Below, one piece after another: positions 3,882-19,589 of a stretch of DNA of 19,895 nucleotides. Source of the DNA: a virus; the IMG/VR virus record IMGVR_UViG_3300008050_000030, one strand, 5' to 3'. The notes beneath the pieces were generated by a model. It searched no databases. It saw only the letters and a list, made by a program, of their open reading frames with translations, and was not told the origin of the DNA. Position 1 is the first letter of the stretch; every line of letters begins with the position of its first letter. The position numbers were made by a program, and so were the translations under genes.

Positions 3882-4605
3882 CCGAGTCATCCCGGGAGTC
3901 GAGGAGCACGACCTGTGGGCCCGGCACGTGATGGTGTGCTTCCTGCAGGGCCTCTGCAACAAGTTGCCCCTGGACCACGCGTGGCATTGGGAGCCGGACC
4001 TCAACACCTCGGGGATTTGGATCTCCGGCGGGACGCCGCTGGACTACGGCCGTGTGTCCCCCCGGCCGGCGATTGCCGTTGACGTAGGGCAGTACCAGGC
4101 CGCTAACATCGCGATGGACCAACTGCGGGCCGAGGACCAGCTGACTGGCGAACGCCTCCACGTTGATCTGGTCCCGGGAACGCTCACGGTGTACGCCTTG
4201 GGCGGGGTCGAGACCGAGGCAAGAAGGCTTGGCGGGTGGATTTCCCGTCAGATCAGGTATCACCGGAGGTTGCTGCAGACAGAAGGAAGTTTCCATCAGA
4301 TCGGTCAACAGCTGGCTGTAGCGCCGCCCACTCCTCCAGGGCAGATCTTCCAGGGGGCGTCCGACGAACGGGCTCGGATGGTGGCGGTCAACATCCCCTG
4401 GTACATGCAGTGGGGATGGTACACCCGGCCGATTGCCCCGCCCACCCAGACCAGCCTGGACTACATCCAGGCCGACCGGGCGCGGGACTACGAGAGGCCA
4501 CACCTGGTGCGGCTGAATGATCTGAGAACTGGCTTTGTAACACCCTCCGGCGACTTGCAGGTTGCTGGAATGCGCAAGGGCCCCGAGCCCACGAACGACG
4601 AATGA
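3847..4605 (+). CDS. Hypothetical protein immediately upstream of the sheath gene. By position it is a candidate tail completion or sheath-associated protein.
   Basis: A GTG start at 3847 is preceded by GGGAG with a 6-nt spacer. An alternative ATG near 3931 lacks an RBS. The assignment rests on synteny only, since the gene ends 11 nt before the sheath-gene start. Confidence 0.4.
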   Translation: MSNEQVKPSSGSRVIPGVEEHDLWARHVMVCFLQGLCNKLPLDHAWHWEPDLNTSGIWISGGTPLDYGRVSPRPAIAVDVGQYQAANIAMDQLRAEDQLTGERLHVDLVPGTLTVYALGGVETEARRLGGWISRQIRYHRRLLQTEGSFHQIGQQLAVAPPTPPGQIFQGASDERARMVAVNIPWYMQWGWYTRPIAPPTQTSLDYIQADRARDYERPHLVRLNDLRTGFVTPSGDLQVAGMRKGPEPTNDE

Positions 4606-4616
4606 GGAGCTGACAC

Positions 4617-7600
4617 ATGCCTGCCATCCCCCAGCCGGGTGTCACCGTCATCCAGGAAATCCGGACCACCTCCCCCACCATCGCCAGCGCGACGCTGCCG
4701 GCGTGCATCATCGGTCCTGCCTTCCAGGTGATCGAGACGCAGGTGGACGGGTTGCTGAGCGCCGACGCCCTGGCGACGTCCTACAGCCAGTACCCCCTCA
4801 GCCTGAGCCAGTCCTCGTTCCCGGACCCGCGTGGCAACATCTCCGAGCTGGACATCCAGGAGGACACGGTCGAGGCGTCGCTCTTCTACGGCGGCTCCCT
4901 CATCGCCCTCCCCCGCGGAGACGGCAGCCCCTTCGGCTCCGCCTTCCTGGCGGCCTCGAACGTGGCCAGCCGCGCCGTCATCGTCACCGACTTCGGTGAG
5001 ACGACCCCGTGGGCCCTGGCCGACGGCGATGTGCTCGTGCTCGCCTTCGACCGCCCCAGCGCGGTGGACACCAGCCAGGACGTGACCGTCACCATCTCCG
5101 CCGCGGCCCCGGTGGCCACGGCCGCCGAAGTGGCCTCGGCCATCAACGCCGCGGTCGGCGAGGACGTGGCCTCCGTCGTGGTGGGCGGCGCCTCCGAGGT
5201 GATGATCCGCTCGAACACCTGGGGAGCTCTCTCCTCGATCGACATCCGGGCGGGCGGCAGCGCCATGACCGCCATGTTCGGCGACACGCAGTCCCGCCGG
5301 GTCGAGGGTTCCGGCTACCGGGCCCAGGACGACTCCGACGGCGACCTCGTCAGCCCCTGGATCGAGTTCTTCGAGGGCGAGGCGTTCCAGAACGGCGTCG
5401 CCGGTTCCTGGGGAGGCGCGGGTCTCGGCCTGGGCCGCTGGACCGAGGCCGGCACGATCTCCAACGCCGACGCCGCGCTGCTCAGCTTCACCGGGGGCGG
5501 CGCGGACATCCCGTTGCAGGCGGCCAGCTCGGTGCGGGCCGGCGACGCGATGGTGAGCGACGGTGTCGACCCGGGGTGGGAGGTCGTCGAGGTGCAGGCC
5601 AGCCGCTTCCGCATGGCGCAGCTGAACTCGGCGCTCTCGACCTTCGACGACGAGGGCAACGCCACCACCCGCTTCTACGACGACCGCGAGGTCAACGTGC
5701 CGAGCCACGGGGTGCCCTTCGCGCCCCGCAACGTGTGGTTCGAGGCGCAGGGGCTGCAGTGGGGCTCGGTGAGCCCCGCCCCGGTGGCCGCCGTGCTCAC
5801 GGGCAACCTGGCGGCCAACGCGGCGCAGAAGGCCGAGGTCCAGAGCGACGGCAGCCTGACCAGCGCGGCTCTCGCGGGCACGCTGGCCCTGGCCGGGCTG
5901 ACCCTGATCACCCAGCTGGTCGACGACGGGATCTCCCAGACGCAGGTGACGTCCACCCTCGCGGGTACGGCGGCGAACACCGTGCAGCTCGCGGCGGCCC
6001 TGGACGCCCTCGCCATCCCCGGCATCGACGCCTGGAACGTCTTCGATGACGGCGCCAACGTCTGGATCCACGCGCAGACCACGAAGACGGGGTCCGGCCA
6101 GACCCTCGTCGTGCTGCCGACCGGCACAGCGAACGCCATGCTGGGCTTCTCGGTCGCCCTGGCCACGTCGCACACCGGCAAGGACCAGGAGTACGGGACC
6201 CCCGCGACGGAGACGGGCGGGACCATCGGCGCCCTGCCCATCGCCACCCTGAGCGGTACGGCCGTGACGGTCGTGGTGACGGACAGCCGCGGCACCTTCA
6301 CCAAGGTCCACACCATGGGCGCGGCCGAGGCGGCGGATGCCACCCTCGCAGACCTCGCGACGGAGCTGAACCTGCAGGCCAACCAGCTCGCCTGGGCCGG
6401 CAACATCCGCATCGGCACCTTCTCCGGTCCCGCGGCGGCCACCGGGGAGCTGGTGTTCACCAGCTTCGAGTCCGGCGACGGTGTCACCGTCGCGGTCTCG
6501 GACGACTCCGGCGGTGGCGGCACCCTGGACATGACCAACGCGCCGGTCGCCGGCGCAGGCACCCTGAGCGGCACGACCCTCCAGCACTCGCTGGACGGCG
6601 GTGACGCGATCACGGTGACCTTCGGCAGCGACTCGCTGGACGACGCGGTCGCGGCGATCAACCTCGCCCACGGCGGGGCGGCCATCGCCTCGATCTCCAC
6701 CACCTTCATGCGCCTCACCTCGCCCCTGGGCGGAGTGGCCTCGTCCATCGACGTGGACGCGGCTTCGACGGCGGACTCGATCCTCGGCTTCCTGCCGGCG
6801 AACGACGAGGCCGCCGGCTCGGGCCGCCCGAACCCGGACTGCTTCCTGGACCTCAGCGGCAACCTGGTGCTGGGCGCGGGCATCCTGCGCAACAGCCTGA
6901 CCGGCGCCCCGTTCGTCCCGGCCTCCGCTGGTCTGTACGTGGCCTACGAGGCACTCCGCCTCGATGTCAGCTCGTCCTCCGCCGCGGTGGAGAAGCTGCT
7001 GACCATCGAGGACCAGGCGACCCTCGAGGCCATCGGTGAGCCCATCGACGCGCGGAACCCGCTCTTCCTGGGCATGTACCTCGCGCTGCTCAACTCGCCG
7101 ACCACGGCCATCACCGGCATCGGGGTGGACGAGGTCAGCGCCGCGCAGCCCGAGGGCACGCTGGACGGCTACGCCCGGGCCTTCGACTACCTGGAGGCCA
7201 AGGACGTCTACGCGATGGCTCCGCTGACGGAGAACGAGCTGGTCCACCTGGTGCTCGACACGCACGTCACCGCCATGAGCGCGGCGGAGCAGCGGGGCGA
7301 GCGCATCGGACTCATCGCACCGGAGGCGCCGACGCGCGCCTTCCCGGCAGCGGTGGCCTCGGGCATCGGCGACTCCACGGCCAACCCCAACGAGATGACC
7401 ATCGACGTGAACCCCACGGGTCAGCTGGTGGCCGCCGGACTCAACCCGGCTGCGCTCGACGCGGACGACGGGGTCTACCTCGAGGTGACCGTGGGCGGGG
7501 ACTTCCGCCGCTACAGCCTGTCGCTGGTCAACGGGACGCTGCTGCAGTTCCGCAACTCGTTCTCCTCGCCGGACAACGACGACGGCTTCTACACGACCAC

Positions 7601-8333
7601 GCAGCTGACCTCGTCGCTGGTCAGCGTGGCCTACGCGCTGAAGATCCGCGGGGACGAGCTGCTGATCCCCGGCAGCTCCCTCCCGGACCTGCCGGCCCGT
7701 GCCGCCGCGGTGGCCGCGTCCGCCACGGACTACCTGAACCGGCGGATGTTCTACCTGTTCCCGGACTCGGTGTCGGCGGAGCTCGACGCCGGCACCGCCG
7801 TCGTGCCGGCCTACTACGCCGCCGCCGCGGTGGCGGGGCAGATCGGCCACCAGCCGCCGGCGCAGCCCCTGACCAACTTCCCCATCTCGGGGCTGAGCGC
7901 GGTCCAGGGGTCGCACGACACCTACAAGAAGAGCCTGCTCGACCAGATCGCCGGCGGAGGGGTGTACATCCTCTTCCAGCAGTCGTCGGGCGGCGCGGTC
8001 ATGTGCCGGCACCAGCTCTCCACCGACACGAGCTCGGTGGAACAGCGGGAGCTGTCCATCACCAAGGCGGTCGACTTCGTGGCCAAGTTCCTGCGGAACG
8101 CGCTGCGGAACCTGATCGGCCGGTTCAACATCACCCCGCAGTTCCTGAACAACCTCGCCACCGTGATCCAGGGCCAGCTGGCCTTCCTCGGCCCCGACGG
8201 GCTGCAGGTCATCGCGGCGGCGCAGCTGAACAACGTGCTGCAGGACGAGTCGAGCCCCGACACCATCCTGGTCGACGTGACCCTGACGCCGCTCTACCCG
8301 GCGAACCAGATCCGCGTGACTTTGGTCGTCTAG
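4617..8333 (+). CDS. Contractile tail sheath protein of 1238 aa with very large inserted domains.
   Basis: The N-terminal segment PGVTVIQEIRTTSPTIASATLPACIIGPAFQVIE carries the GPAFQ-type motif characteristic of the T4 gp18 sheath family. The C-terminal segments LIGRFNITPQFLNN and TLTPLYPANQIRVTLVV match the conserved sheath C-terminal domain. GAGGAG lies 8 nt before the ATG. The central roughly 800 aa is Ala/Gly/Thr-rich and contains internal domain repeats. The gene is followed by a putative tube gene. Confidence 0.82.
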   Translation: MPAIPQPGVTVIQEIRTTSPTIASATLPACIIGPAFQVIETQVDGLLSADALATSYSQYPLSLSQSSFPDPRGNISELDIQEDTVEASLFYGGSLIALPRGDGSPFGSAFLAASNVASRAVIVTDFGETTPWALADGDVLVLAFDRPSAVDTSQDVTVTISAAAPVATAAEVASAINAAVGEDVASVVVGGASEVMIRSNTWGALSSIDIRAGGSAMTAMFGDTQSRRVEGSGYRAQDDSDGDLVSPWIEFFEGEAFQNGVAGSWGGAGLGLGRWTEAGTISNADAALLSFTGGGADIPLQAASSVRAGDAMVSDGVDPGWEVVEVQASRFRMAQLNSALSTFDDEGNATTRFYDDREVNVPSHGVPFAPRNVWFEAQGLQWGSVSPAPVAAVLTGNLAANAAQKAEVQSDGSLTSAALAGTLALAGLTLITQLVDDGISQTQVTSTLAGTAANTVQLAAALDALAIPGIDAWNVFDDGANVWIHAQTTKTGSGQTLVVLPTGTANAMLGFSVALATSHTGKDQEYGTPATETGGTIGALPIATLSGTAVTVVVTDSRGTFTKVHTMGAAEAADATLADLATELNLQANQLAWAGNIRIGTFSGPAAATGELVFTSFESGDGVTVAVSDDSGGGGTLDMTNAPVAGAGTLSGTTLQHSLDGGDAITVTFGSDSLDDAVAAINLAHGGAAIASISTTFMRLTSPLGGVASSIDVDAASTADSILGFLPANDEAAGSGRPNPDCFLDLSGNLVLGAGILRNSLTGAPFVPASAGLYVAYEALRLDVSSSSAAVEKLLTIEDQATLEAIGEPIDARNPLFLGMYLALLNSPTTAITGIGVDEVSAAQPEGTLDGYARAFDYLEAKDVYAMAPLTENELVHLVLDTHVTAMSAAEQRGERIGLIAPEAPTRAFPAAVASGIGDSTANPNEMTIDVNPTGQLVAAGLNPAALDADDGVYLEVTVGGDFRRYSLSLVNGTLLQFRNSFSSPDNDDGFYTTTQLTSSLVSVAYALKIRGDELLIPGSSLPDLPARAAAVAASATDYLNRRMFYLFPDSVSAELDAGTAVVPAYYAAAAVAGQIGHQPPAQPLTNFPISGLSAVQGSHDTYKKSLLDQIAGGGVYILFQQSSGGAVMCRHQLSTDTSSVEQRELSITKAVDFVAKFLRNALRNLIGRFNITPQFLNNLATVIQGQLAFLGPDGLQVIAAAQLNNVLQDESSPDTILVDVTLTPLYPANQIRVTLVV
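8306..8333 (+). repeat. Upstream copy of a 28-bp imperfect direct repeat that encodes the sheath C-terminus QIRVTLVV plus stop. Its partner lies at 9311-9338.
   Basis: ccagatccgcgtgactttggtcgtctag compared with ccagatccgcgtgaccctggtggtctga. All four differences are synonymous or a stop-codon swap. Confidence 0.85.
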
Positions 8334-8379
8334 CGTAAGTTCCACTAGGTGTGTGGTAGGCTGTCTCTCGGAGGTAGCT

Positions 8380-9324
8380 ATGCCCGGTGGACGGCCCAAG
8401 AAGATCAAGCCCCCTTGCAAACTCGACGGCTGCGAGAAGCCATCGAAGTCCAGAGGGATGTGCGGCACGCACTACATGCAGCTCCGTCGCGGCGCCATCG
8501 ACGAGCGCGGTGCCTCGCTGCGGCCCATGAAGCAGGGCCGGGACGGCGGCTGTGAAGTCGATGGCTGCGGTGACCCGATCGTCGCCCGTCGGATGTGCAG
8601 CAAGCACTACCAGCGGCGGATGTCGGGCGCTTCGGGGGAGGCGAGAGAGCGCCACGCCAACCACTCCCGTGAAGGCGTGTGCAGGCTGGAGGGGTGCGGC
8701 AGGGAGATCGAGAATGGAAGAGTCCGGATGTGCCGTCGCCACTACGCGCAGTACTATCGCCGGATCATTGATGAGGACGGAGTCCGGCTCCGGGAGTTGA
8801 AGAGGGTCCCGTCAGCGGAGGGCCTGGCCTGTTCCGTCCCAGACTGCCACTCCCGGCCGACGAGGCGCGGCATGTGCCAGAAGCACCGGAGGCAGGAGCA
8901 GGCGGGCCTGATTGACGAGCAGGGCAACAAGCTCCGAGAGCACAAGACTCGGGGACGGCCCAGAAGGAAGGCCCGCTGGAGGACCTCGGGCGGGTACGTC
9001 CGCAAGCACGCGCCGGAGCACCCCAACGCCGACAAGTACGGCAACGTCCTGGAGCACCGTCTGGTGATGGAGGCCCATCTCGACCGACTTCTTGGCCCGA
9101 AGGAGGTCGTGCACCACATCAATGGGAAGCGGGACGACAACCGCCTGGAGAACCTGCAGCTGCGTCAGTGGACCACGCACCCTCCTGGATCAGAGCCCGT
9201 GGACGACATCGAGGCCGCCCTGGGGCTTCTGGAAGAGCGCTTGACCAAGAACACCACGGGCGGTGAGGCTCACTTGGAGAGGCTCCAGGACCTGCTCGAT
9301 CGGGAATCGGCCAGATCCGCGTGA
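8380..9324 (+). CDS. Free-standing HNH homing endonuclease with four N-terminal tandem Cys3His zinc-finger-like repeats.
   Basis: The C-terminus reads VVHHINGKRDDNRLENLQL, which is the HNH motif. There are four repeats of C-x3-(G/D)C-x7-9-C-x2-H(Y/R)-x3-RR. GGAGG lies 6 nt before the ATG at 8380; the ORF track's 8353 start lacks an RBS. Codon usage is rich in AGA and AGG, unlike neighbouring genes. The gene is flanked by a duplicated sheath 3' end. Confidence 0.85.
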   Translation: MPGGRPKKIKPPCKLDGCEKPSKSRGMCGTHYMQLRRGAIDERGASLRPMKQGRDGGCEVDGCGDPIVARRMCSKHYQRRMSGASGEARERHANHSREGVCRLEGCGREIENGRVRMCRRHYAQYYRRIIDEDGVRLRELKRVPSAEGLACSVPDCHSRPTRRGMCQKHRRQEQAGLIDEQGNKLREHKTRGRPRRKARWRTSGGYVRKHAPEHPNADKYGNVLEHRLVMEAHLDRLLGPKEVVHHINGKRDDNRLENLQLRQWTTHPPGSEPVDDIEAALGLLEERLTKNTTGGEAHLERLQDLLDRESARSA

Positions 9325-9338
9325 CCCTGGTGGTCTGA
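9311..9338 (+). repeat. Downstream copy of the 28-bp duplicated sheath 3' end, lying in the +1 frame across the HNH stop codon.
   Basis: See the paired repeat at 8306-8333. The duplicated sequence ends exactly where homology to the sheath gene ends. Confidence 0.85.
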
Positions 9339-9471
9339 TTCCTGGCAGGGATGCCGGGAGAAGAGTACGCTGTCTTCACACCGAGGACGTGATGGTGGCC
9401 TGCAGTGGGTAGGTCACAAGCAGTCTCCGAGAGGATCTGCTCACCACACCTCTTGACCCTGTGAGATCGCC

Positions 9472-10284
9472 ATGACGTACCAGTTCCCTCTCGAGCCCGG
9501 ACAGGCTCCCCTCTCTGTCACCGTCGAAGGTGGCGATCCCTGGGGCGACCGTCGTCTGCACCGCAAGCACGACGCCCGTTGGCGCGGCATCGCCCGACAG
9601 TTCGTGGACGAGCGTGCTCCTGGCGGAGTCGGCTACATCCGCGTCATCGACTTCGCCAACCACGTGGACGGGGAAGACCTGACCCTCGGGTCGCGGATCT
9701 ACGAGCTGGACACCGTGCCGGATGGAGTCACCGCCGGCTCCGTCGCCGTCGACGTCAGCGGCGTCGGCTCGAACGCTGACCTCGCAGTGGAGATCGCAGC
9801 GGCCATCAACGGTGACGCGGACCGTGAGGTCGATGCGGCTGTCGTCGACACCGACAAGGTGGTCTTCCTGCCGCGCACCAACTGGGGTGCCGCGGGCAAC
9901 CTCGCCATGGTGTCCACCATCAACGTCCTGGATGTTCCGGCTCCCGCTGCGCTCATGACCGGGGGCGAGCTGCCTGCGGCCATCCGCCGCTGCCAGGGCT
10001 CCTACACCGTGACGCTGGCCGATGTGACGGCTCTCACCGCCGGCGACGTCATTCCCGTCGGCTCGGTGCCGTGGACCAACGCCCCGGCCTGGACGCATCT
10101 CCAGCTCGAGTCCAGCGTCGGCCTGCTCAAGCCTCTCTCGGGCGAAGCCGGTGCCGTCGACGCAGCCACCTACGGCTGGGTGCAGGTGAACGCCAACCGC
10201 CGAGCCCTGCTCGTCTCCGCCACCGTGGTGTCGGGACTCCCCTTCGCCGCCGGCGACGTCCTCCACTGGCAGACCTCGGTCTGA
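9472..10284 (+). CDS. Hypothetical tail protein (270 aa) carrying one copy of the roughly 70-aa domain that is tandemly repeated inside the sheath insertion region.
   Basis: ADLAVEIAAAINGDADREVDAAVVDTDKVVFLPRTNWGAAGNL aligns with sheath AAEVASAINAAVGEDVASVVVGGASEVMIRSNTWGALSSI and with DDAVAAINLAHGGAAIASISTTFMRLTS. GC3 is high. The gene lies between the sheath/HNH genes and the tube gene. Confidence 0.55.
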   Translation: MTYQFPLEPGQAPLSVTVEGGDPWGDRRLHRKHDARWRGIARQFVDERAPGGVGYIRVIDFANHVDGEDLTLGSRIYELDTVPDGVTAGSVAVDVSGVGSNADLAVEIAAAINGDADREVDAAVVDTDKVVFLPRTNWGAAGNLAMVSTINVLDVPAPAALMTGGELPAAIRRCQGSYTVTLADVTALTAGDVIPVGSVPWTNAPAWTHLQLESSVGLLKPLSGEAGAVDAATYGWVQVNANRRALLVSATVVSGLPFAAGDVLHWQTSV

Positions 10285-10297
10285 GAAGGAGCCTCTG

Positions 10298-11056
10298 ATG
10301 GCCCAGCTTTCTGGATGGTCGCCCTACGACAGCTACGTGCAGGGCGGCATGATCGACGGCCGGTTCATGTCGGCCGCCTTCACCCTCATCGCCGCGGGAC
10401 CCCCGCGTCTGGCGGCGGTGGCAGGTGGGAACGGAGATCTCGGCTCCCCGGCCGAGTTCGCCTTCCCCATCGGCGTGGTGCAGAACTTCAACCTCTCCCA
10501 CAACCGGCAGTTCAGCCGGTTCTGGGAGGTCGGCTCGGAGCGCAGCTACTTCATCAGCGGCCGGACCATGGGGCAGATGTCGCTCTCGCGCATCATGTAC
10601 CACGGGTCCTCGCTGATGCGGGTGCTCTACGCCTACTACCAGGACCTGATCCCCGACACGGGGGCCTCGTTCGCGGCCATGTTCGACAACCCCGGCATCG
10701 CCGGCGTCGCCAACAAGCACGACGTCGTCATCCCGCCGGGCTACGAGAACGTGTTCCTGAACCTGGCCTCGGACCTGTTCGCCCAGCCCATCGGCATCCT
10801 GCTGTACTTCCGCGACAGCAACATGGCCACCCTGGGGGCCGGGTACCTCGAGTCCTGCTACGTCCCGGCGATCAACCTCGCCTCGGACTCGCAGGGCACG
10901 GTGATCCAGGAGTCGGCGCAGATCCAGTTCGAGCGGATGATGCCCATCGACGTCAACGCGGTCGCCCTGATCCGCGGCGGCATCGATGAGCTGATCCCCG
11001 GCGCGGACATGCTGCCCTCCGGGTCCATCCCCTCGGGAGGATTCCCTCCGGGGTAG
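10298..11056 (+). CDS. Putative tail tube protein (252 aa).
   Basis: The gene sits in the position downstream of the sheath. GAAGGAG lies 7 nt before the ATG. There is weak motif resemblance to the gp19 tube family (P-x-G-V-V-x7-NRQ...). It is followed by a strong terminator. It is larger than typical tube proteins, so confidence is moderate. Confidence 0.45.
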   Translation: MAQLSGWSPYDSYVQGGMIDGRFMSAAFTLIAAGPPRLAAVAGGNGDLGSPAEFAFPIGVVQNFNLSHNRQFSRFWEVGSERSYFISGRTMGQMSLSRIMYHGSSLMRVLYAYYQDLIPDTGASFAAMFDNPGIAGVANKHDVVIPPGYENVFLNLASDLFAQPIGILLYFRDSNMATLGAGYLESCYVPAINLASDSQGTVIQESAQIQFERMMPIDVNAVALIRGGIDELIPGADMLPSGSIPSGGFPPG

Positions 11057-11077
11057 CGGTTCCGCGGAGTGATCGGT

Positions 11078-11108
11078 GAAGGCCCTCGTGTGACCCACGA
11101 GGGCCTTC
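11078..11108. terminator. Bidirectional intrinsic-terminator-like hairpin between the convergent plus-strand tail genes and the minus-strand operon.
   Basis: A perfect 13-bp stem, GAAGGCCCTCGTG and CACGAGGGCCTTC, encloses a 5-nt loop (tgacc). It lies 22 nt after the tube stop and 6 nt after the stop of the minus-strand gene ending at 11114. There is no strong T tract on either side. Confidence 0.6.
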
Positions 11109-11113
11109 GTCGT

Positions 11114-11851
11114 TCAGAAGGTGGAGCTGATGAAGCGCTTGTTCCACCAGGCGTAGCGGACCGCCGTGAAGCCCAGGGGCAGGGCCGACTGCGTCTTCCA
11201 GAGCAGCGACCCCTCGGAGGTCCACTCGATGTCCACTCCCGCCTCTACGTCGGCCTGGACAGCCTGCAGGACGGCCTGCTCCAGCTCGATGCCGAGTTCC
11301 ACCCGCCCCTCTCCGTAGAAGGAGAACTTCAGCCACTCGGCGTAGACCGTCGACTCGACGATGTCGACTTGCCGCTCGACGGGGAAGCCCGCGCGCCTGG
11401 ACTTCATCAGCCGCACCACCTCCCGCATGTCCCCGCAGTCCAGCGAGGAGTTGACCATCTGCAGGTAGTCCAGATCGGTCAGGTAGTCCGGCTCGCCGAT
11501 GCGGTTGAGCTCGTCGTGCACCAGCTTCTTCTGGGTCAGCGGACCCACCTGCACCTGGACCTGCTTGCCGACGGAGAGGCCGGCACGCAAGGAGGCGATC
11601 TGAGGCACCCCCACCTTCAGGCCGGCGTTCGGCACCGACACGGTGTGGGTCCAGTGGTCCAGCAGCGCGGAGGACTGCAGGGGCGGGCTGATGCTCAGGT
11701 CCTCGGGGAAGCAGTCCAGGTCCGCCAGGTGCTGCAGCACCTCGCCCTGGTTGTTCAGCAGGGTGCCAGGGGTGATGTCCTCGCTGGGGAGGCGGAGCAG
11801 GTAGATCCGGTGCTTCTTCAGGAAGCGTCGCAGGGGCTGAAGCAGGCTCAC
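11114..11851 (-). CDS. Hypothetical 245-aa protein, the terminal gene of the minus-strand unit, with its own strong RBS. It is a candidate effector or toxin-like cargo.
   Basis: A GTG start at 11851 is preceded by GAGGTGATCC, a near-perfect anti-SD complement. It is separated from the upstream RHH gene by a 123-bp spacer containing direct repeats. It has a basic N-terminal helix (LRRFLKKHRIYLLRLP) and an aromatic C-terminus (YAWWNKRFISSTF). I could not recognise a family. Confidence 0.6.
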   Translation of the reverse strand: MSLLQPLRRFLKKHRIYLLRLPSEDITPGTLLNNQGEVLQHLADLDCFPEDLSISPPLQSSALLDHWTHTVSVPNAGLKVGVPQIASLRAGLSVGKQVQVQVGPLTQKKLVHDELNRIGEPDYLTDLDYLQMVNSSLDCGDMREVVRLMKSRRAGFPVERQVDIVESTVYAEWLKFSFYGEGRVELGIELEQAVLQAVQADVEAGVDIEWTSEGSLLWKTQSALPLGFTAVRYAWWNKRFISSTF

Positions 11852-11950
11852 GGATCACCTCAAGCTAAGAGAGGGGCGGGTCCGGGGGATCAGTCCCAGC
11901 GCGAGGAGGAGAGATGTACGCCGAGCTGCAGACCCACGCCCTCCCCGACA

Positions 11951-11971
11951 GCGTGACGGGGAGGGCGTGAC
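11951..11971. promoter_or_regulatory. Direct repeat GCGTGAC occurring twice with 14-bp spacing, in the spacer between the RHH gene and the terminal 245-aa gene. It is a candidate RHH operator.
   Basis: GCGTGAC lies at 11951-11957 and at 11965-11971. It is immediately downstream of the RHH stop and upstream of the RBS of the 11114-11851 gene. Confidence 0.3.
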
Positions 11972-11974
11972 AGG

Positions 11975-12172
11975 TCAAGGTTCCTGGGGCAGCAGGGTCT
12001 TGGTGTTCAGGAGCACATCGTCGCGCTCCAGGCGCTCCCGGACGTCGTCGAGCAGCGCGTTGGTCACCTCCGAGACGGAGACAGTCCTCCCCCGCTCCCG
12101 CTCCGCTTCCGCCCGAAGACGGTCGACGAGGCGAGAGTTGGGGAGGGACATGTTGATCACTCGGGAGGGCAC
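11975..12172 (-). CDS. Ribbon-helix-helix (CopG/Arc/MetJ-like) DNA-binding protein.
   Basis: The segment NMSLPNSRLVDRLRAEAERERGRTVSEVTNALL has the beta-strand, helix, helix pattern of RHH antitoxins and repressors. A GTG start at 12172 is preceded by GAGGAC with a 7-nt spacer; an alternative ATG lies at 12151. Confidence 0.55.
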   Translation of the reverse strand: MPSRVINMSLPNSRLVDRLRAEAERERGRTVSVSEVTNALLDDVRERLERDDVLLNTKTLLPQEP

Positions 12173-12402
12173 GCCAAGTCCTCGTCGACTCGACAGAGCT
12201 CATCGAACTCGTCAGCCTCGTCGACCGGGGGCGACGGCGTCTCGTCTTCCAACGGCCCCACGTCCTTCAGCGCGTCGCGCAGGGACTGGAAGACCGCCAT
12301 GCCTCCGTCGAACAGGGCCATGGACAGCCTCCCCTCCTTCCGAGGGTCGAACTTGGCCATGTAGAGCTGGTGGGCCTTGGCGAGCCACTGCTCCCGGGTC
12401 AC
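12157..12402 (-). CDS. Hypothetical small protein (81 aa) with an acidic C-terminus.
   Basis: The GTG start overlaps the upstream stop (GTGA). GC3 is high. The C-terminal tail reads DETPSPPVDEADEFDE. Confidence 0.45.
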   Translation of the reverse strand: MTREQWLAKAHQLYMAKFDPRKEGRLSMALFDGGMAVFQSLRDALKDVGPLEDETPSPPVDEADEFDELCRVDEDLACPPE

Positions 12403-12827
12403 TCGTACACCCCCTGCCCGGCCGCCTTCAGCGCCGCCTCCTGCTGCATCCGCTCCATCACGGCGGCCCCGCGCGAGCGGGAGAGGGCGATGCCCATGAC
12501 GGCGCTCGCCTCGGTGGCGCCGAGGCGGAACACGGCGTCGACGGTGTCGTCGGTGACCAGCCCGGAGTACTCGGTGATCATGTACTGGCCCAGTCCCGCC
12601 CAGACGGAGGAGAGGAGCGCGTGGCTCTGCAGGGGCCGCGCCGACATCGTGGCCATCGACAGGGGCTTGATCACCTCGTCCTGCTTGATGGGGCCGGTGA
12701 CGGCCAGGAAGAAGGAGAGGCCGGCGTCGCTGAGGATCTGGGCCGCCTCCTCCAGCTTCTGCTGCATGGTGAGGGGGTCGGTGAGGTCAGGCATGTCGGC
12801 CATGCGGGTGGGGTCGTCGTCGATCAT
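12399..12827 (-). CDS. Hypothetical protein (142 aa).
   Basis: The ATG at 12827 lies in an ATGA overlap with the stop of the vWA gene. GC3 is high. No family was recognised. Confidence 0.5.
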   Translation of the reverse strand: MIDDDPTRMADMPDLTDPLTMQQKLEEAAQILSDAGLSFFLAVTGPIKQDEVIKPLSMATMSARPLQSHALLSSVWAGLGQYMITEYSGLVTDDTVDAVFRLGATEASAVMGIALSRSRGAAVMERMQQEAALKAAGQGVYE

Positions 12828-14671
12828 CGGGCTTTTCCTGTCAGGTACTGGTGGAAGAGCTTCTCCCCGAGCGACACGAGCGCCTGCCCGGCGGAATCGC
12901 AAGGGCACTGGGAGAAGAACTTGGTGGAGTGGGACATGAACATCGCGTCTTCGTAGCTGATCTGCCCTCCCACGTAGAGGGTCTGCACGCGGATTCCTTC
13001 GCGCATGGCCTCCATGATGTTGCGGCGGACGTGGGTCTTGGCCCCCGATCCGGTGGGAGCTCCGTCGGTCAGGTGGATGAGCTGACGGAAGCCGGTCTTC
13101 GTCATCAGCTCCCGGGCCGCCACGCGAATGGCGGTGTGTGATGGGGTGGAGCCTCCGAGGATCGTGTTGTCGTTGTTGGCGGGCATCTTGCGGATGGGGT
13201 GCCCCATCCGGTGGATGACCACTTCGCTATCCCAGCCGCCGTAGTAGATCCAGACCTGCCCCTCCACGCCGGGGAAGTTCAGGGCCTTGGCCAGCTGCAG
13301 CGCTGCTCGAGCTTCCTGCTCGAACAGAGAGCCCACCACGGACCCCGAGCCATCGAGCAGGAGCAGGTACTTGAAGCCCGGCAGAGGTCGGGGAGACCGG
13401 AAGATCGGCCCCTCCTTCGTCATGCGGCGCTGCACGGCGGCCTGGATGTCCACCGTCGTCCCTTCGTAGTCCAGGTGGGTGCGCTGCTTGCCGCGGATCT
13501 TGACGAACTTCGAGTGCAGCCGCGAGGTGATCGCCAACTCCTCTCCCGTCAGCACCCGCGGCACGAGCTGCGAGTCCTGGATGTCGTGGAGCTGGACCTT
13601 GGCCTTCGCGTCCTCCGTCAGCCACTCGTCCTTGTCGGGGACGTCGGACTGCCCCGACTGCAGATCAGCGATGGTCTGCAGCATGGCGGCAGCCGCCGCG
13701 GCCTGGGTGTCGGGGTTGTCCAGGTGCTGAGAACCCCCCATGGCTGCAGCAGCCTGAGCCTGCGCTGCAGGGTCAAAGCGGTGGGCGTCCAGCTTCTTCT
13801 TGACGTACCCCTCGACGGGCGTGTCGCTGTGCCCCTGGCTCTTGAGCAGGTCGATGTCGCCTTGGCCCAGCAGAGCCATGAGGCGCAGCGCCACGGCCTG
13901 CGTCACCGCGGGATCCTGCTGCCCCGGGTCGCCCAAGAGGGTGGCCACTGCCCCGGCACCGCTCGGGGCGTTCCCGGCAGGCTGAGCGGCGGCTCCCGTC
14001 TTCTGCGCGAAGCGGTCTCCCAGGAGCTTCGTCAGCTTGGACATCAGCTTGGCCGCCGCAGCCATGCAGGAGGTGAAGTCCGAGGAGACGCAGTCCAGGT
14101 ACGCCTGCTCGATGGCTGGTTGCACGGCCAGGAAGTCTGCGTCTGCGTCAGCGGGCGCCTGGCCGAACATGCAGCTCAGCATGAACTGGAAGAAGTCCTT
14201 CTTGGCTCCCTCCGTCTGCTCTCGGCCGATCCGCTTCCACCGCGCCACCAGGAGGTCGTAGTCCCCCGGGTTGAACTGGCCCCACCAGTAGGCGACGCGG
14301 TTGTCGTCCAGGATGTTCACGACGTGGTGGATGAAGGCGGCCAGGGGCTCCGTCTGCCCCGAGAGGGTGCGGTCTCCCTTGGCCAGGAAGTCCGTGATGA
14401 TCCGGTCCGCCAGCTTGGTGGTGAAGTGGTGCATCGCCTCGATGTTCGAGCCGAAGACGATGTGGCTCAGCTCGTGGCCCGCCACGAGCCATGCCTCGGG
14501 GTCGGCGAGAGGCACGTTGACCTGCCGGCCGTCGGTGCTGCCGAAGGGAGCGTCGCGGAGCCAGATGGGCTGGCCGAGGGCTTTGCTGGTGGTGTTGACG
14601 AGCTTGTAGCAAGCGTCCTTCGTCTGCCACGCGGGTCCGCGCAGCGACGCTGGGAGAGTGAAGTCGGCCAC
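12824..14671 (-). CDS. CobT/NorD/CbbO-like partner protein (615 aa) with a C-terminal von Willebrand factor A domain and an N-terminal region containing an HExxH motif.
   Basis: The C-terminal vWA domain has the MIDAS motif LLLDGSGSV, followed by ...GGSTPSHTAI... and ...IHLTDGAPTG. The N-terminal region contains AGHELSHIVFGSNIEAMHH. The GTG start at 14671 is preceded by GAGGAGG. Its size matches phage and bacterial CobT-like vWA partners of AAA_5 ATPases. Confidence 0.75.
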   Translation of the reverse strand: MADFTLPASLRGPAWQTKDACYKLVNTTSKALGQPIWLRDAPFGSTDGRQVNVPLADPEAWLVAGHELSHIVFGSNIEAMHHFTTKLADRIITDFLAKGDRTLSGQTEPLAAFIHHVVNILDDNRVAYWWGQFNPGDYDLLVARWKRIGREQTEGAKKDFFQFMLSCMFGQAPADADADFLAVQPAIEQAYLDCVSSDFTSCMAAAAKLMSKLTKLLGDRFAQKTGAAAQPAGNAPSGAGAVATLLGDPGQQDPAVTQAVALRLMALLGQGDIDLLKSQGHSDTPVEGYVKKKLDAHRFDPAAQAQAAAAMGGSQHLDNPDTQAAAAAAMLQTIADLQSGQSDVPDKDEWLTEDAKAKVQLHDIQDSQLVPRVLTGEELAITSRLHSKFVKIRGKQRTHLDYEGTTVDIQAAVQRRMTKEGPIFRSPRPLPGFKYLLLLDGSGSVVGSLFEQEARAALQLAKALNFPGVEGQVWIYYGGWDSEVVIHRMGHPIRKMPANNDNTILGGSTPSHTAIRVAARELMTKTGFRQLIHLTDGAPTGSGAKTHVRRNIMEAMREGIRVQTLYVGGQISYEDAMFMSHSTKFFSQCPCDSAGQALVSLGEKLFHQYLTGKAR

Positions 14672-15260: not shown

Positions 15261-15665
15261 TCAGGTGTGGTCGAAGACGATGAGCATCTGCCCCTCGGGC
15301 AGGCGCACATCGAGGTGCTCTTGTACGTGATCCCTCAGCACGCCCCAGAGACGTCGGGCCTGGCTGATCTTCGGCTGCAGCTCGAGCATCGTCCAGCAGA
15401 CGCTGTCGAGCTGCATGCGCAGGGCCACGATGCCCATCCACTTCTCGTCGCAGTCGGGGGAGCTGCTCTCGAAGGAGAGGTTCTCCAGCTCCGGGGGACA
15501 GGTCGCCAAGAAGTCGTCCCAGTTGTCGACCCAAGAGCCGAACTTCATGCCCCCCTCGACGGGGAACTCCTCGGGGGGAGCGACCCCCCAGATCACGGCT
15601 GCGAAGCACTCGCCCATTGGCCGTTCTCCTCGTGGTTGAAGGGTAAGAGGAAGACGCAGCTGCAT
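15261..15665 (-). CDS. Hypothetical protein (134 aa; alternative start at 15617 giving 118 aa).
   Basis: The ATG at 15665 overlaps the stop of the RNR-fragment gene by 1 nt (TGATG). An alternative ATG at 15617 has GAGGAG upstream. Confidence 0.45.
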   Translation of the reverse strand: MQLRLPLTLQPRGERPMGECFAAVIWGVAPPEEFPVEGGMKFGSWVDNWDDFLATCPPELENLSFESSSPDCDEKWMGIVALRMQLDSVCWTMLELQPKISQARRLWGVLRDHVQEHLDVRLPEGQMLIVFDHT

Positions 15666-16465
15666 CAGCTACATCCGCTGGTCGCTCCGCAGTCCTCGCA
15701 GACACCGCAGGTGCCGGACTGCTTCATCCGCATGCTCCCGCAATGGGAGCAGCTGTCGCCGGTGTAGCCGGCCCCCACCGCAATCTCCCGCGACATCGTG
15801 ACCGCGGGAGCGTGAGGGTTGCCCTTCCACGCCTCTGCGGCATCGAACTTCGCTACGGCCTCTGGAGCCGGCCCCTCTACGGGAGTGAGCAGCTCCTTGG
15901 AGGGGTGGCCCAGGGTGTCAGGACGGAGGTTCTCCTCGGTGACGTCGGTGTGCGCGAGGTCGGCCATGCCCAGGTAGCTGATGGCCAGCTCCCGGAAGAT
16001 GTAATCGACCACGGAGGTCGACATCTTGATCCGGTCGTTGCCCGTCACCATCCCGCTCGGCTCGAACCGGCTGAAGATGAACAGGTGCACGAACTTCTCC
16101 AGGGGCACTCCGTGCTGGAGACCCAGGGAGACCGCGATGCCGAAGCAGTTCATCAGCGACCGGAAGGCCGCGCCCTCCTTGTGCATGTCGACGAAGATCT
16201 CGCCGAGCGTGCCGTCCTCGTACTCTCCCGTCTTGAGGAAGATCTTGTGGCCGGCGACGCGCGCCTTCTGGGTGTAGCCCTGACGCCTGTCCGGGAGGCG
16301 TCGTCGAGAGGTCTTCTCCGCCAGAGCCTTCCAGAGCAGCTCCGGACACCGCCGGTCGACGGTGCCCTCGGCGGTCGACTCGCAGTGGCGGCAGTAGGCC
16401 ACCACTGCGCCGTCGCCGTCCGGCTCGACCCAGTCGTGATCGTACTTGGGGTCGAAGTCCGCCAC
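15665..16465 (-). CDS. Orphan C-terminal segment of a ribonucleotide reductase large subunit, most like class II adenosylcobalamin-dependent NrdJ (a split NrdJb-like piece), with a Cys-rich C-terminal tail.
   Basis: The block [112 protein letters not shown] matches the conserved C-terminal core of RNR alpha subunits. The tail [28 protein letters not shown] resembles RNR C-terminal redox or Zn tails. The GTG start is preceded by GAGGAGG. No N-terminal catalytic half of an RNR is present in this window. Confidence 0.6.
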
Positions 16466-17097: not shown

Positions 17098-17693
17098 CAG
17101 CCCTCCTTGAGGCACCCGCACACGAAGCGGGCCTTGTTGTGTTCGACGCAGAGGCCGCACTGCCAGTGGCCGGGGGTGCCGACGGTGGGGCAGTTGAGCC
17201 TCTGCAGATCATCGTTGATCGGGTCTCTCCCGTGGAGAGCTCGGAACTCGTAGGCCGTGTAGGGATTCTCCTCCAGGTCCCGTTCCGGCCCCCCCAGCGT
17301 GATGTCGATGGTGATGGTGGTGAGGGGGTGCTCCAGCACGAGATCGTACTCAAAGAGGGAGTAGACGATCTTGGTCGGGTCCTCCTCGTCCACTTCCACG
17401 GTGACCTCGCGGGTCACGGAGTCGGGGCAGACGCGCCCGACCCGTGACCCCTCGGCGGTGTAGAGGCTCCCGTCCCCCTCCAGGCGCGCCCCTTGGGAAC
17501 GGAACCACAGCTGGAGCAGCGCCCAGTCCTGTGCCTTGTTGTGGGGGCCGGTCCTCATCTGATGGTCGCGAAGAAGCTCCTCGAGCTTCGCCTGCAGGGC
17601 TGCCAGGAACCCCGCGTTGATGTTGAACCTTCCGATGTAGCCGGTCAGCGTGTCCCGGACGATGCCCAGGAACTCCTCGTCCTGGGCAGACAT
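17097..17693 (-). CDS. Cys-rich (zinc-ribbon-like) protein of 198 aa. Its N-terminal helix and a central strand mimic the conserved C-terminal domain of the tail sheath protein.
   Basis: The ATG at 17693 overlaps the AAA+ gene stop by 1 nt (TGATG). FLGIVRDTLTGYIGRFNINAGFLAALQAKLEELL aligns with sheath FLRNALRNLIGRFNITPQFLNNLATVIQGQL, and HPLTTITIDITL aligns with sheath TPLYPANQIRVTL. The C-terminal cluster is C-x11-C-x2-C-x9-C-x-C. The ORF-track 505-aa ORF at 17097..18614 is a frame artefact upstream of this start. Confidence 0.6.
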   Translation of the reverse strand: MSAQDEEFLGIVRDTLTGYIGRFNINAGFLAALQAKLEELLRDHQMRTGPHNKAQDWALLQLWFRSQGARLEGDGSLYTAEGSRVGRVCPDSVTREVTVEVDEEDPTKIVYSLFEYDLVLEHPLTTITIDITLGGPERDLEENPYTAYEFRALHGRDPINDDLQRLNCPTVGTPGHWQCGLCVEHNKARFVCGCLKEG

Positions 17694-18691
17694 CAGGGAG
17701 TCGCCTTCCGGCGCTTCTTGGGCTTCGGCTTGGCCTTGGGCACGTCCAGCACGTTGAGGCTGGCGACGTCGACCCCCATGCGCGCCTGCACCTTCTTGAC
17801 GTAGAACTCGCGCTGCTGCGCTTCCTCGAACTTGAAGGTGGACAGGAGCAGCGCCTTGGGCACCCCCCAGAGTGCTGCGTTGCGGCAGATCTGGTGCAGG
17901 TCGGACGTGGACAGCGAGTACTCGAACGTCCCCGTCCGGGTGTCGCCGGCGAGCTCCAGCAGCATCGAGACGAAGGGCTTGTCGCCCGCGACCTTCTCGG
18001 CGAAGACGGCGTCCGGGATGGCCTTGTCGTCGTCGCAGGCCGAGGCCCGCAGCCCCATCAGGATCTTCAGCTCTTGCTCCTTGGGCGGGTAGTCCAGGAA
18101 GATGGGCTGCACGCGCCGCTTGAAGTCGTCGTTCAGGGCGTTGGTGCCTCCGTAGGCGCTGGGGTTCATGGTCATCACGACCCAGAGCTTCGCGCCGATG
18201 TCGAGGCTGAAGGCGCGGCCCAGCTTGTGGACGTTGATCGTCCCCTGGAAGTCCAGGAGCGGGTTCAGCGTCTTCTGGGTCTGGGGCCGCAGGGCGTTGA
18301 CCTCGTTGATGAGCAGGATGGCACCGTCGCCGGCCTCGGTCTTGGCGACGAAGCGCTCGTGCATCTCGTTGGCCACTTCGATGGCCGTGGTGAGGGCTCC
18401 GAGCCCGAAGAACGAGGTGTCCCCCTCGAGGCCGAAGGCGCCGATGAGGTCGAGGTCGCGGGTCTCTTCGGTGCAGCTGTACTCGATGATGGGCAGCCCC
18501 GTCTCCTGAGCGAGGGCGTAGACGGACATGCTCTTCGCCATGCCCGTGGGGCCGACGACGAGCAGGGGGTCGTGGAAGGTGGACTGGCGGAGGAACCCCA
18601 GAAGGCCGGTGCAATCGACGTAGGGGACTTCCGCCTGGAAGTAGGACTCGAGCGGCATGCGGCGCAGCTCGTAGGCAGCCTGATCAGACAA
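17693..18691 (-). CDS. CobS/CbbQ/NorQ-like MoxR-family AAA+ ATPase (AAA_5 type) with a lysine-rich C-terminal tail.
   Basis: The Walker A motif reads LLVVGPTGMAKS, the Walker B and sensor region reads AILLINEVNALRPQTQKTLNPLL, and a CobS-like MTMNPSAYGGTNALNDDFKRR motif is present. The C-terminus is KAKPKPKKRRKATP. The start is either TTG at 18691, with GGAGAG upstream, or ATG at 18658. It is the first gene of the minus-strand operon. Confidence 0.8.
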   Translation of the reverse strand: MSDQAAYELRRMPLESYFQAEVPYVDCTGLLGFLRQSTFHDPLLVVGPTGMAKSMSVYALAQETGLPIIEYSCTEETRDLDLIGAFGLEGDTSFFGLGALTTAIEVANEMHERFVAKTEAGDGAILLINEVNALRPQTQKTLNPLLDFQGTINVHKLGRAFSLDIGAKLWVVMTMNPSAYGGTNALNDDFKRRVQPIFLDYPPKEQELKILMGLRASACDDDKAIPDAVFAEKVAGDKPFVSMLLELAGDTRTGTFEYSLSTSDLHQICRNAALWGVPKALLLSTFKFEEAQQREFYVKKVQARMGVDVASLNVLDVPKAKPKPKKRRKATP

Positions 18692-18767: not shown

Positions 18768-19589
18768 ATGCCGATCGCCTCGATCATCATCCCCACCTGC
18801 AACCGCGACGCCGCCCTAGCCCGCGCGGTCAACAGCGCGTTGTCTCAGTCGATCTCGGACACCGAAGTCATCGTGGTCGACGACGCCTCGCAGGACCAGA
18901 CTGCGGAGGTCCTCAACGAGCTCCTGCGGATGGATGATCGACTGAGGGTGCTGCAACTCCCCATCCCACTGGGGTTGTCCGGAGGGCTGCAGCGGAACGA
19001 GGCCGTGAAGATGGCGCGCGGAGAGTACATCGCGTACCTCGACGACGACGACGTCCTGACCTACCGCTCCATCGAAGCACGCATCGAGTTCCTGCGGCAC
19101 CGCCCCCAGCTCGACTTCTGCTGGGGGCGCACCCTCTTCATCCGGCACACCGTGGGGCACCCAGACCTGGACGGCCGAGTTGTGGCCCGCCTGGTCAAGG
19201 AGCCGCGGCCCGGTCCCGGGGAACCGAACGGGCTTCACTGGGTGCGGGGCACCGTCATCCCTGACGAGTTCATGCACCGCGCCGGCGTCGTTGGCGAGAA
19301 GAGCGGGGTGTGGTGGCCCAGCGGGCGTGGAGAGGATCGCAAGCTGCTCCAGGCCATCATCAAGGCCGGCTTCAACGGTGCGGCCTGCGACGAGGTGGTC
19401 GCCATCTACGGACGGACGGTCGGCTACACCGACTCTGCCCACAGGCAGACGAAGGCGAGGCAGGCACGCAAGGTGAAGGGGGCGACGCAGGTGCGGCCCC
19501 CCGGTCTACGGCGGCCGGTGTCCGCCAGCGCCCGGCTCCAGCAGGCCGGGAAGGAGAGGGAGGACCATGTCCGACGCGGAGATCATTGA
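18768..19589 (+). CDS. Family 2 glycosyltransferase (GT-A fold).
   Basis: The N-terminus reads SIIIPTCNRDAALARAVNSALSQS...EVIVVDDASQD, and YIAYLDDDDVL provides the DxD motif. The layout is the classic GT2 catalytic domain. Confidence 0.8.
   Translation: MPIASIIIPTCNRDAALARAVNSALSQSISDTEVIVVDDASQDQTAEVLNELLRMDDRLRVLQLPIPLGLSGGLQRNEAVKMARGEYIAYLDDDDVLTYRSIEARIEFLRHRPQLDFCWGRTLFIRHTVGHPDLDGRVVARLVKEPRPGPGEPNGLHWVRGTVIPDEFMHRAGVVGEKSGVWWPSGRGEDRKLLQAIIKAGFNGAACDEVVAIYGRTVGYTDSAHRQTKARQARKVKGATQVRPPGLRRPVSASARLQQAGKEREDHVRRGDH

Follow-up and report, generated by a model that had tools for sequence, protein, structure and literature searches.

Gasdermins carry out cell death under the control of the host. 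Animal, fungal and bacterial gasdermins stay inactive until a protease or a partner acts on them, and those of bacteria are antiphage proteins known as effectors of abortive infection. A protease is "almost always" encoded alongside bacterial gasdermins (bGSDMs) (Wein et al. preprint), and removal of the C-terminal peptide turns bGSDMs toxic (Johnson et al. preprint). In the Vitiosangium bGSDM, the final 30 residues are the inhibitory peptide and the activated form is 237 amino acids long (Johnson et al. preprint). Among viruses, the only gasdermin-family proteins that we found in the literature were of the poxvirus A47 type. We found no report of a phage gasdermin, in a search whose coverage left subscription journals mostly outside, so that an earlier description is possible. 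Here we describe a gasdermin homologue encoded by an open reading frame (ORF) of 245 amino acids in IMG/VR virus record IMGVR_UViG_3300008050_000030. The analysed stretch of 19,895 nucleotides, hereafter the window, opens the 188,377-bp metagenomic contig ena:ERZ27249009:k141_382418, and coordinates are identical in both. The ORF is the last gene of a long operon, directly downstream of an ORF of 65 amino acids, and an initial annotation of the sequence had read these two ORFs as a regulator and a possible effector or toxin.

Gasdermin homology of the 245-amino-acid protein

Gene calls placed the ORF on the minus strand at positions 11114-11851 with a GTG start, and profiles and a predicted structure identified its product. 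The gene is real and constrained, because the GC content at its third codon positions is 0.94 and the ratio of nonsynonymous to synonymous substitution rates (dN/dS) is 0.30-0.39 among the three closest lineages. Pfam and PHROGs yielded no match for the ORF, and the initial annotation had left the protein without an assignable family. That verdict was overturned by the PADLOC bGSDM model, which matched the ORF with an E-value of 3.4e-11 and also matched 12 of the 15 family members, and by the structural comparison below. The sole NCBIfam family matched was prok_gasdermin, in seven of the 15 members; its match to the window protein was weak and N-terminal, at 20.3 bits against a cut-off of 100.

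Relatives of the protein were sought in several collections. A word-indexed search of 5.8 billion proteins returned only the protein itself and two relatives, and an exhaustive HMMER search of 1.84 billion cluster representatives returned 13 proteins. The members of the resulting, very small family are 219-250 amino acids long, except for one fragment of 136 amino acids. No match was found by tblastn against 50,697 phage records or among the predicted viral protein structures of BFVD at an E-value of 1e-3 or lower. No relative was found by a pattern scan of IMG/VR or with two degenerate peptide patterns across 185,579 species-representative genomes (GTDB). A profile of the three closest sequences matched a single PDB entry, a designed repeat protein, which we rejected as spurious.

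We modelled the protein with AlphaFold2 from a 15-sequence alignment (pLDDT 82.2, pTM 0.77) and compared the model with the PDB using Foldseek. The first six matches consisted only of the bGSDM crystal structures 7N51, 7N52 and 7N50. They were aligned over the full length with a probability of 1.00, E-values from 6.3e-8 (7N51) to 3e-4 and TM-scores of 0.49-0.57, at a sequence identity of 10-14%. The initial annotation had suggested checking for pore-forming folds, and this suggestion proved apt. Ranks 7 to 9 were taken by active oligomers or pore models of bGSDMs (8SL0, 9A84) and by TrichoGSDM (8JYV), which stood at rank 9, and RCD-1 followed at rank 48. The first match outside the gasdermins had a probability of 0.25. 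At the sequence level, positions 8-224 of a family profile aligned to residues 10-216 of the Vitiosangium bGSDM (7N51_A/8SL0_A) with an E-value of about 0.01. By fold and profile the protein belongs to the gasdermin superfamily, and we consider it almost certain that it is a gasdermin homologue.

The alignments to bGSDMs stop short of the end of the bacterial proteins. Residues 6-239 of family member P0004 (245 amino acids) align to positions 5-223 of the 257-position bGSDM model, and residues 4-235 of P0014 (243 amino acids) align to positions 8-223. The match of the window protein ends at residue 241, again at model position 223. About 34 model positions are left unmatched, and four to eight residues remain in these members. 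The conserved strand PLGF occupies residues 213-216 of the 266 residues of the Vitiosangium bGSDM, so that 50 residues remain there; the phage protein has 16-17 residues after this strand. Judged from these alignments, the members appear to stop about where the canonical bGSDM cleavage loop and inhibitory peptide start. Because the alignments end at position 223 of 257 with so few residues remaining, the loop and the peptide are most likely lacking.

Other hallmarks of the bacterial systems were also absent. None of 14 members has a cysteine in its first six residues, where we looked for a palmitoylation site. No caspase-like C14, CHAT, subtilase or trypsin domain was found in the neighbours with Pfam, PHROG, PADLOC and NCBIfam, or in the neighbours of the relatives with Pfam. 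The locus is not a canonical bGSDM defence system, as it departs from four defining features: a score above the NCBIfam cut-off, an inhibitory peptide with its cleavage loop, an adjacent protease and an N-terminal cysteine. Control by disulfides in the manner of TrichoGSDM was considered as well and rejected, since Cys47 and Cys139 are not conserved in the relatives.

The ends of the protein are as the initial annotation had described them, with a basic amphipathic N-terminus and an aromatic C-terminus (VRYAWWNKRFISSTF). The amphipathic helix spans residues 2-14 and is basic in the majority of members: over the first 20 residues, nine of 14 have a net charge of +3 to +6. Two regions, at residues ~74-105 and ~173-210, show a beta-type amphipathic periodicity when averaged over the family. 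Within the second region, residues 188-203 are drawn as a helix by AlphaFold2. Such a beta-periodic stretch modelled as a helix is the behaviour that would be expected of segments that refold into membrane hairpins. The protein contains no hydrophobic helix, its maximum Kyte-Doolittle mean over 19 residues being 0.93.

A gasdermin gene in a clade of large phages

The window and the loci L001, L004, L010, L013, L015, L017, L019 and L028 represent nine lineages that form a main clade. Their contigs are 134-188 kb long, those of the relatives reaching 147 kb and 134 kb, and their gasdermins are 33-71% identical. In the main-clade relatives the gasdermin gene is the last of its operon and converges on the gene of a 252-amino-acid protein, beyond which lie a putative tail-tube gene and a sheath gene. 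In the window this protein is encoded on the plus strand (10298-11056), where its gene ends the convergent tail module. No other neighbour of the gasdermin is as well conserved: the 252-amino-acid protein is present at all main-clade loci with 55-91% identity. One relative carries a T4-type rIIB gene and Thy1 upstream, and no close cultured phage was found. Within this clade of large, uncultured phages, which have a high GC content and sheathed tails, the gasdermin gene is conserved, vertically inherited and fixed in its place, and we regard it as very probable that the window gasdermin is phage-borne. Because the position is fixed and the gene is vertically inherited, a function in the phage life cycle fits better than a mobile abortive-infection or toxin-antitoxin cassette.

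Four divergent members, at L009, L012, L020 and L008, were found in other contexts. At L009 (200-1515, on a contig of 2.5 kb) the 219-amino-acid protein P0013, the most divergent phage-like member, is encoded tail to tail with a hydrolase gene that it overlaps by 4 nucleotides. The hydrolase is also 219 amino acids long and has PG_binding_1 and CHAP domains, both above the Pfam cut-offs. This was the sole endolysin-type gene that we saw directly adjoining any family member. L012 has, two genes upstream, a 193-amino-acid protein that resembles tail-lysin or peptidase domains, and the neighbours at L020 are unannotated. P0014, the most distant member at 24% identity, is found at L008 (4556-5287) in a bacterial-looking context. 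Its neighbours encode a peroxiredoxin, an aldo-keto reductase, a glyoxalase and a molybdopterin oxidoreductase, and no protease or phage genes are nearby. P0014 may be a host-side relative or a remnant.

The 303,591-bp contig Ga0080013_1000005 (loci L023 and L026) carries two members, which are 71% and 42% identical to the window protein. The copies are ~55 kb apart in opposite orientation, each with its own sheath module, and one of them is 99.98% identical to a separate contig of 147 kb. If the contig were genuine, the arrangement would recall the two-partner RCD-1 gasdermin system. We rejected the two copies as an RCD-1-like pair, because the contig is probably a chimeric join of two related phages.

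The upstream ORF, the spacer and the neighbouring genes

The GC content of the window is 67%. Genes on its plus strand (42-11056) converge on the long minus-strand operon, which runs from ~18691 down to 11114 and comprises about 15 genes according to the gene calls. The last two genes of this operon are the 65-amino-acid ORF and the gasdermin ORF. The gene calls agreed with the initial annotation on the coordinates of both and on the 123-nucleotide spacer between them (11852-11974, minus strand) as the only large gap of the operon. The other junctions overlap or measure at most 47 nucleotides.

The 65-amino-acid ORF (11975-12172, minus strand, GTG start) had been called a ribbon-helix-helix (RHH) regulator. 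Its sequence suggests a beta strand (RVINMSL) followed by helix A, a G-R-T turn and helix B, which we take to be the pattern of the RHH fold. A comparison using hhalign with an alignment of Arc, Mnt, CopG and NikR placed the protein in register with an E-value of 0.012 but a probability of only 3.6%. The best PDB match of a four-sequence profile was TTHA0139, with an E-value of 0.08, and no RHH family was matched in Pfam even at E-values up to 10. The RHH assignment is plausible on the strength of the sequence pattern and the in-register alignment; it finds no backing in Pfam. Six of the nine main-clade lineages have a homologue upstream of the gasdermin gene, with an additional small ORF in between at L010. 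None was detected at L013, at L017 or on the outlier contigs. We rejected the idea that every gasdermin of the family has this small upstream ORF as its partner or inhibitor, since the upstream ORFs of L013 and L017 are unrelated and L010 has the additional ORF. An ordinary late-gene regulator, which the initial annotation had also entertained, is possible for the 65-amino-acid protein.

Spacers of similar size (113-116 nucleotides) are limited to the sub-clade of the window, L001 and L004. In the more distant relatives the two reading frames overlap or come within ~30 nucleotides of each other: L010, L013 and L017 have no spacer, and L015 has one of 31 nucleotides. In the window the spacer ends in the Shine-Dalgarno sequence GAGGTGATCC (11852-11861, minus strand), which abuts the GTG of the gasdermin ORF and is as strong as had been claimed. 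We take it to be a perfect 10-nucleotide complement of the 3' end of the 16S rRNA (GGAUCACCUC). In the spacer alignment, the relatives have a weaker AGGA or GAGGA before an ATG.

The heptamer GCGTGAC occurs in the spacer at 11951-11957 and 11965-11971, exactly where the initial annotation had placed it as an operator-like direct repeat. Its reading as an operator fared less well. Some direct repeat of seven nucleotides appeared in 52% of spacer shuffles, and in 16% one appeared within 20 nucleotides, so that the repeat is at chance level. It was also absent from the two closest relatives in the spacer alignment. Both copies are contained in or overlapped by an inverted repeat (11935-11950 and 11954-11969), with arms of 16 nucleotides that are 94% complementary and a loop of 3 nucleotides.

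This inverted repeat forms a stem-loop (11935-11969, minus strand), which begins 6 nucleotides past the stop codon of the RHH-like ORF and is GC-rich, without a U-tract. Its folding energy on the coding strand is -36.2 kcal/mol (z = -5.8), a stability that no shuffle out of 200 reached. The matching positions of L001 and L004 fold at -36.3 and -29.9 kcal/mol. Across the spacer, RNAalifold found compensatory double changes in 11 of 26 predicted pairs, several of them in the hairpin stem. The hairpin probably acts as a terminator or attenuator and thereby insulates the gasdermin gene. A scan for consensus terminators did not call it; terminators without a U-tract have been described in high-GC actinobacteria. 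The palindrome could possibly serve as a DNA operator. An RNA structure is favoured over this, because the arms change by compensation and the putative DNA-reading strand of the 65-amino-acid protein is nearly unchanged.

No promoter-like site was found in the spacer by a sigma-70 scan, and no Rfam family matched it. A promoter made up of the conserved CTTGAC at the RHH-like stop codon and CTTAGCT near the Shine-Dalgarno sequence was rejected, as the two are ~100 nucleotides apart. CTTAGCT occurs once in the window, which is the chance expectation.

A second hairpin lies between the convergent operons at 11070-11116, where it overlaps the stop codon of the gasdermin ORF. It was found as an inverted repeat and by folding, on both strands, and has a perfect GC-rich core of 13 bp at 11080-11110, without a U-tract. 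Its folds reach -32.1 and -33.2 kcal/mol on the two strands (z about -6), and it looks like a bidirectional terminator. Both this hairpin and that of the spacer are within the five most stable 46-nucleotide folds of the window. Two very stable hairpins, one of which is the most stable fold in the window, lie within minus-strand coding regions at 17405-17450 (-34.8 kcal/mol) and 16373-16418 (-32.4 kcal/mol). A sub-threshold Rfam match to the small RNA sodF (E-value 0.54) overlaps the 11070-11116 hairpin and is probably due to chance. A search for tRNAs returned none.

Upstream of the RHH-like ORF are two small, translationally coupled ORFs, of 81 amino acids (12157-12402) and 142 amino acids (12399-12827), both on the minus strand and called as genes. 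The first is overlapped by the RHH-like ORF over 16 nucleotides. They are partly kept in the relatives, and their function is unassigned, with no family matched in Pfam, PHROG, PADLOC or NCBIfam.

The next gene (12824-14671, minus strand) encodes a protein of 615 amino acids with an N-terminal HExxH motif and a C-terminal VWA domain, as seen in alignments and VWA profile matches. The motif, GHELSH, is invariant down to 36-40% identity, and so is the full metal-ion-dependent adhesion site (MIDAS) of the VWA domain (DGSGS...T...TDG). VWA or VWA_2 was found in five of six homologues. The predicted model is poor (pLDDT 62), with low confidence in the N-terminal domain. In Foldseek it matched VWA domains only, including that of NorD in the NorQ-NorD complex 9QH6. 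No peptidase family or fold was detectable for the HExxH domain in profile and Foldseek searches.

At the head of the operon lies the gene of an AAA+ ATPase of the MoxR/CobS type (17693-18691, minus strand; 332 amino acids), matched by Pfam AAA_5 (E-value 2e-14) and PHROG 249. It is 26% identical to a cyanophage "porphyrin biosynthetic protein". Together with the gene of the 615-amino-acid protein it makes up a MoxR-VWA pair like those of NorQ/NorD and CobS/CobT, and this pair recurs across the phage clade. The 615-amino-acid protein is a candidate partner of the ATPase, and the two genes may constitute an uncharacterised metallopeptidase-VWA/MoxR module in phages.

Between these two genes the operon encodes a stand-alone TSCPD protein of 266 amino acids (15665-16465, minus strand; Pfam and PHROG 84). 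It matches the C-terminal end of the large subunits of phage ribonucleotide reductases and ends in a cysteine-rich tail (CSHCGS...). No catalytic core of a ribonucleotide reductase was seen in the window. Divergent from the operon is the gene of a family-2 glycosyltransferase (18768-19589, plus strand), GtrB-like according to PHROG, which is kept at the equivalent place in L001 and L010.

On the other side of the gasdermin gene, the plus-strand tail module includes a sheath gene (4617-8333) and a putative tube gene (9472-10284). The sheath protein is unusually long at 1,238 amino acids. Its last ~180 residues match sheath families (PHROG 279, E-value 1e-15), and roughly its C-terminal third gave weak tblastn matches to Salmonella phage Arash, from residue 774, and to Bacillus phage G, over residues 1081-1234. 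The first ~770 residues had no match in PHROGs or by tblastn against cultured phages. An HNH endonuclease gene (8353-9324, plus strand; strong PHROG HNH matches) sits between the sheath gene and the putative tube gene, where L001 and L004 have ~130-140 nucleotides and no gene. It looks like a recent insertion of a homing endonuclease into the tail module.

Possible roles of the phage gasdermin and comparison with known systems

We propose, at a probability of roughly 0.5, that the protein is the phage's own protease-independent gasdermin pore former, used for host lysis or another breach of the membrane. According to this proposal no proteolytic activation would be required. Control would lie mainly in the timing and amount of synthesis, and since no cleavage is needed, these would decide when the gasdermin acts. 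In the sub-clade of the window, the hairpin past the RHH-like stop codon would insulate the gene, the very strong Shine-Dalgarno sequence would drive its translation and the second hairpin would close the unit. Accumulated protein would bind the cytoplasmic membrane through its basic N-terminal helix, its two amphipathic segments would refold into beta-hairpins, and the molecules would oligomerise into large pores. These pores would kill the cell and let a phage cell-wall hydrolase out, which is the job of the holin in other phages. The further step, that a gasdermin without inhibitory peptide has taken the place of the holin as the lysis protein of a lineage of large phages, is somewhat doubtful.

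Hints of a role in lysis come from the adjacent CHAP hydrolase at L009 and the lysin-like gene at L012. In addition, no ORF with a transmembrane segment of the kind needed in a holin was found in the window. Taken with the fixed core position of the gene, its purifying selection, the features of a pore former and the combination of insulation and a strong Shine-Dalgarno sequence, these observations would support such a role.

Several observations weigh against this proposal. In the main clade no endolysin gene adjoins the gasdermin gene, at ~20 kb viewed per contig, and a holin-endolysin cassette is possible elsewhere in the genomes. The operon of the gasdermin looks non-structural, with its AAA+ and ribonucleotide reductase-related genes, and could belong to the early or middle genes instead of the late ones. 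Translational coupling of the gasdermin to upstream genes, seen in several relatives, would be odd for an unrestrained lethal protein. The final 10-16 residues are aromatic and conserved (RYAWW..RF) and could act as a short brace in cis, and the AlphaFold2 model is in an inactive-like state. Gasdermins without a cleavable peptide can also be latent, as TrichoGSDM is inactive as a disulfide-linked dimer and RCD-1 requires a heterotypic partner. Finally, from its sequence, the 615-amino-acid protein is the only conceivable protease candidate of the operon and might be an activator.

These last points lead to the view that the protein is a latent effector, which an activator from the phage or the host would release for superinfection exclusion or a phage-borne form of abortive infection against competing phages. 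We think this unlikely. The AAA+ ATPase and the HExxH-VWA protein would be sensor and activator; the HExxH domain would then be a metalloprotease, or the VWA domain would mediate binding. This would fit the near-universal pairing of bacterial gasdermins with a protease (Wein et al. preprint), and gasdermins that consist of the N-terminal domain alone can be latent. The motif and the complete MIDAS of the 615-amino-acid protein have stayed invariant despite 36-40% identity, and VWA homologues lie upstream in most main-clade loci, as do AAA+ homologues where the sequence reaches that far. However, the family offers neither a cleavage loop nor a C-terminal peptide for a protease to remove, and the HExxH domain could not be tied to a peptidase family or fold. 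Known MoxR-VWA pairs such as NorQ-NorD and CobS-CobT work as chaperones or in metal insertion, and no gasdermin match was obtained for the cyanophages that have an annotated CobS-like ATPase of this kind. Moreover, no VWA homologue was detected at L017 or the outlier loci, and a fixed core position in apparently virulent genomes of T4-like size would be unusual for an exclusion moron.

Two other accounts appear improbable to us, to a similar degree. One is that the protein counters defence, either by co-assembling with host gasdermin pores and poisoning them or by blunting a pyroptosis-like abortive infection, comparable to poxvirus A47, an inhibitor of caspase and gasdermin signalling. It is encouraged by the fact that the only viral gasdermins found in the literature are poxvirus decoys and that gasdermin defence is inhibited by some phage proteins, such as a CARD-like one (Wein et al. 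preprint); the lack of an activation module would also suit a non-lethal derivative. Yet A47 resembles the regulatory C-terminal domain and not the pore-forming one, and a cleavage decoy is excluded since the segment that a protease would cut is lacking. Purifying selection has maintained the basic helix for lipid binding and the two amphipathic hairpin regions, and the gene is kept in nine of nine lineages although host gasdermin systems are rare. The other account is the cassette of the initial annotation, in which the RHH-like protein would bind the spacer repeats and repress the toxin, or act as its antitoxin in a type II toxin-antitoxin or abortive-infection module. The cargo is indeed of a lethal type, as expected from an effector or toxin, and this half of the idea has stood. 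Pairs of RHH antitoxins and toxins are common, an RHH-like ORF is upstream in six of the nine main-clade lineages, and the 16-bp palindrome of the spacer could double as a DNA operator. The architecture of RHH protein and operator is not supported. The 65-amino-acid protein has no established RHH fold, the direct repeat does not exceed chance and lacks conservation, and the arms of the palindrome diverge by compensation while the putative DNA-reading strand is nearly identical, which fits an RNA hairpin better. The RHH-like ORF forms no bicistron but is translationally coupled within a long operon of ~15 genes, it was undetected at L013, L017 and the outliers, and no promoter-like site accompanies it. 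Because the whole gene order is syntenic in the clade, the adjacency of the two ORFs is not specific evidence for a regulator-toxin pair. The locus is not a type II toxin-antitoxin module in the sense of an autonomous bicistron with its own promoter and operator.

If the lysis proposal is right, it is the virus rather than the host that wields the pore, which would be a new biological context for gasdermins. The protein would be the first pore-forming gasdermin in a virus and possibly a new class of phage lysis protein. Gasdermin pores would then be used on both sides of the phage-host conflict, and bacterial defence gasdermins and phage lysis proteins could share an origin. This raises the questions of how a gasdermin is restrained up to the proper moment without an inhibitory peptide, whether it can substitute for a holin, and whether genes are exchanged between defence and lysis gasdermins. 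A compact, protease-independent pore former of bacterial membranes may also serve as a tool or as an antimicrobial scaffold.

The protein shares its fold, profile homology and similar size with the bGSDMs of Runella, Bradyrhizobium and Vitiosangium (7N50, 7N51, 7N52, 8SL0; Johnson et al. 2022), and in each the N-terminal helix is basic and amphipathic segments correspond to membrane beta-hairpins. In contrast to the bGSDMs, which sit in defence islands with a protease, it is encoded by a phage without an adjacent protease, and it does without their cleavage loop, inhibitory peptide and N-terminal cysteine. Vaccinia A47 and its poxvirus homologues derive from the regulatory C-terminal domain and inhibit caspase and pyroptosis signalling, whereas the phage protein is a counterpart of the pore-forming N-terminal domain. 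The RHH-like neighbour resembles Arc, Mnt, CopG and the N-terminal domain of NikR in its size of 65 amino acids and in its strand-helix-turn-helix pattern in register; unlike them, it has weak statistics (3.6% in hhalign), no Pfam match and putative DNA binding.

Holins such as lambda S105 are small and integral to the membrane, which they cross with at least one helix, whereas the 245-amino-acid protein is soluble and rich in beta structure. It does not belong to any holin family, and any resemblance would be functional only. The proposed likeness lies in a timed, lethal lesion of the cytoplasmic membrane that is large enough for a folded endolysin, and a hydrolase-like gene lies near the gasdermin in only two divergent contigs (L009 and L012). 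The closest analogues in logic are the cleavage-independent gasdermins of Trichoplax and Neurospora, which consist of the N-terminal domain only. Like the phage protein, TrichoGSDM (8JYV) and the fungal RCD-1-1 and RCD-1-2 (8JYX, 8JYY) have ~250 residues and neither an inhibitory domain nor a protease. They differ from it in being eukaryotic and in their means of restraint: TrichoGSDM is held by conserved intermolecular disulfides, whereas the cysteines of the phage protein are not conserved, and RCD-1 requires two allelic partners, whereas the phage loci that we read carry a single copy.

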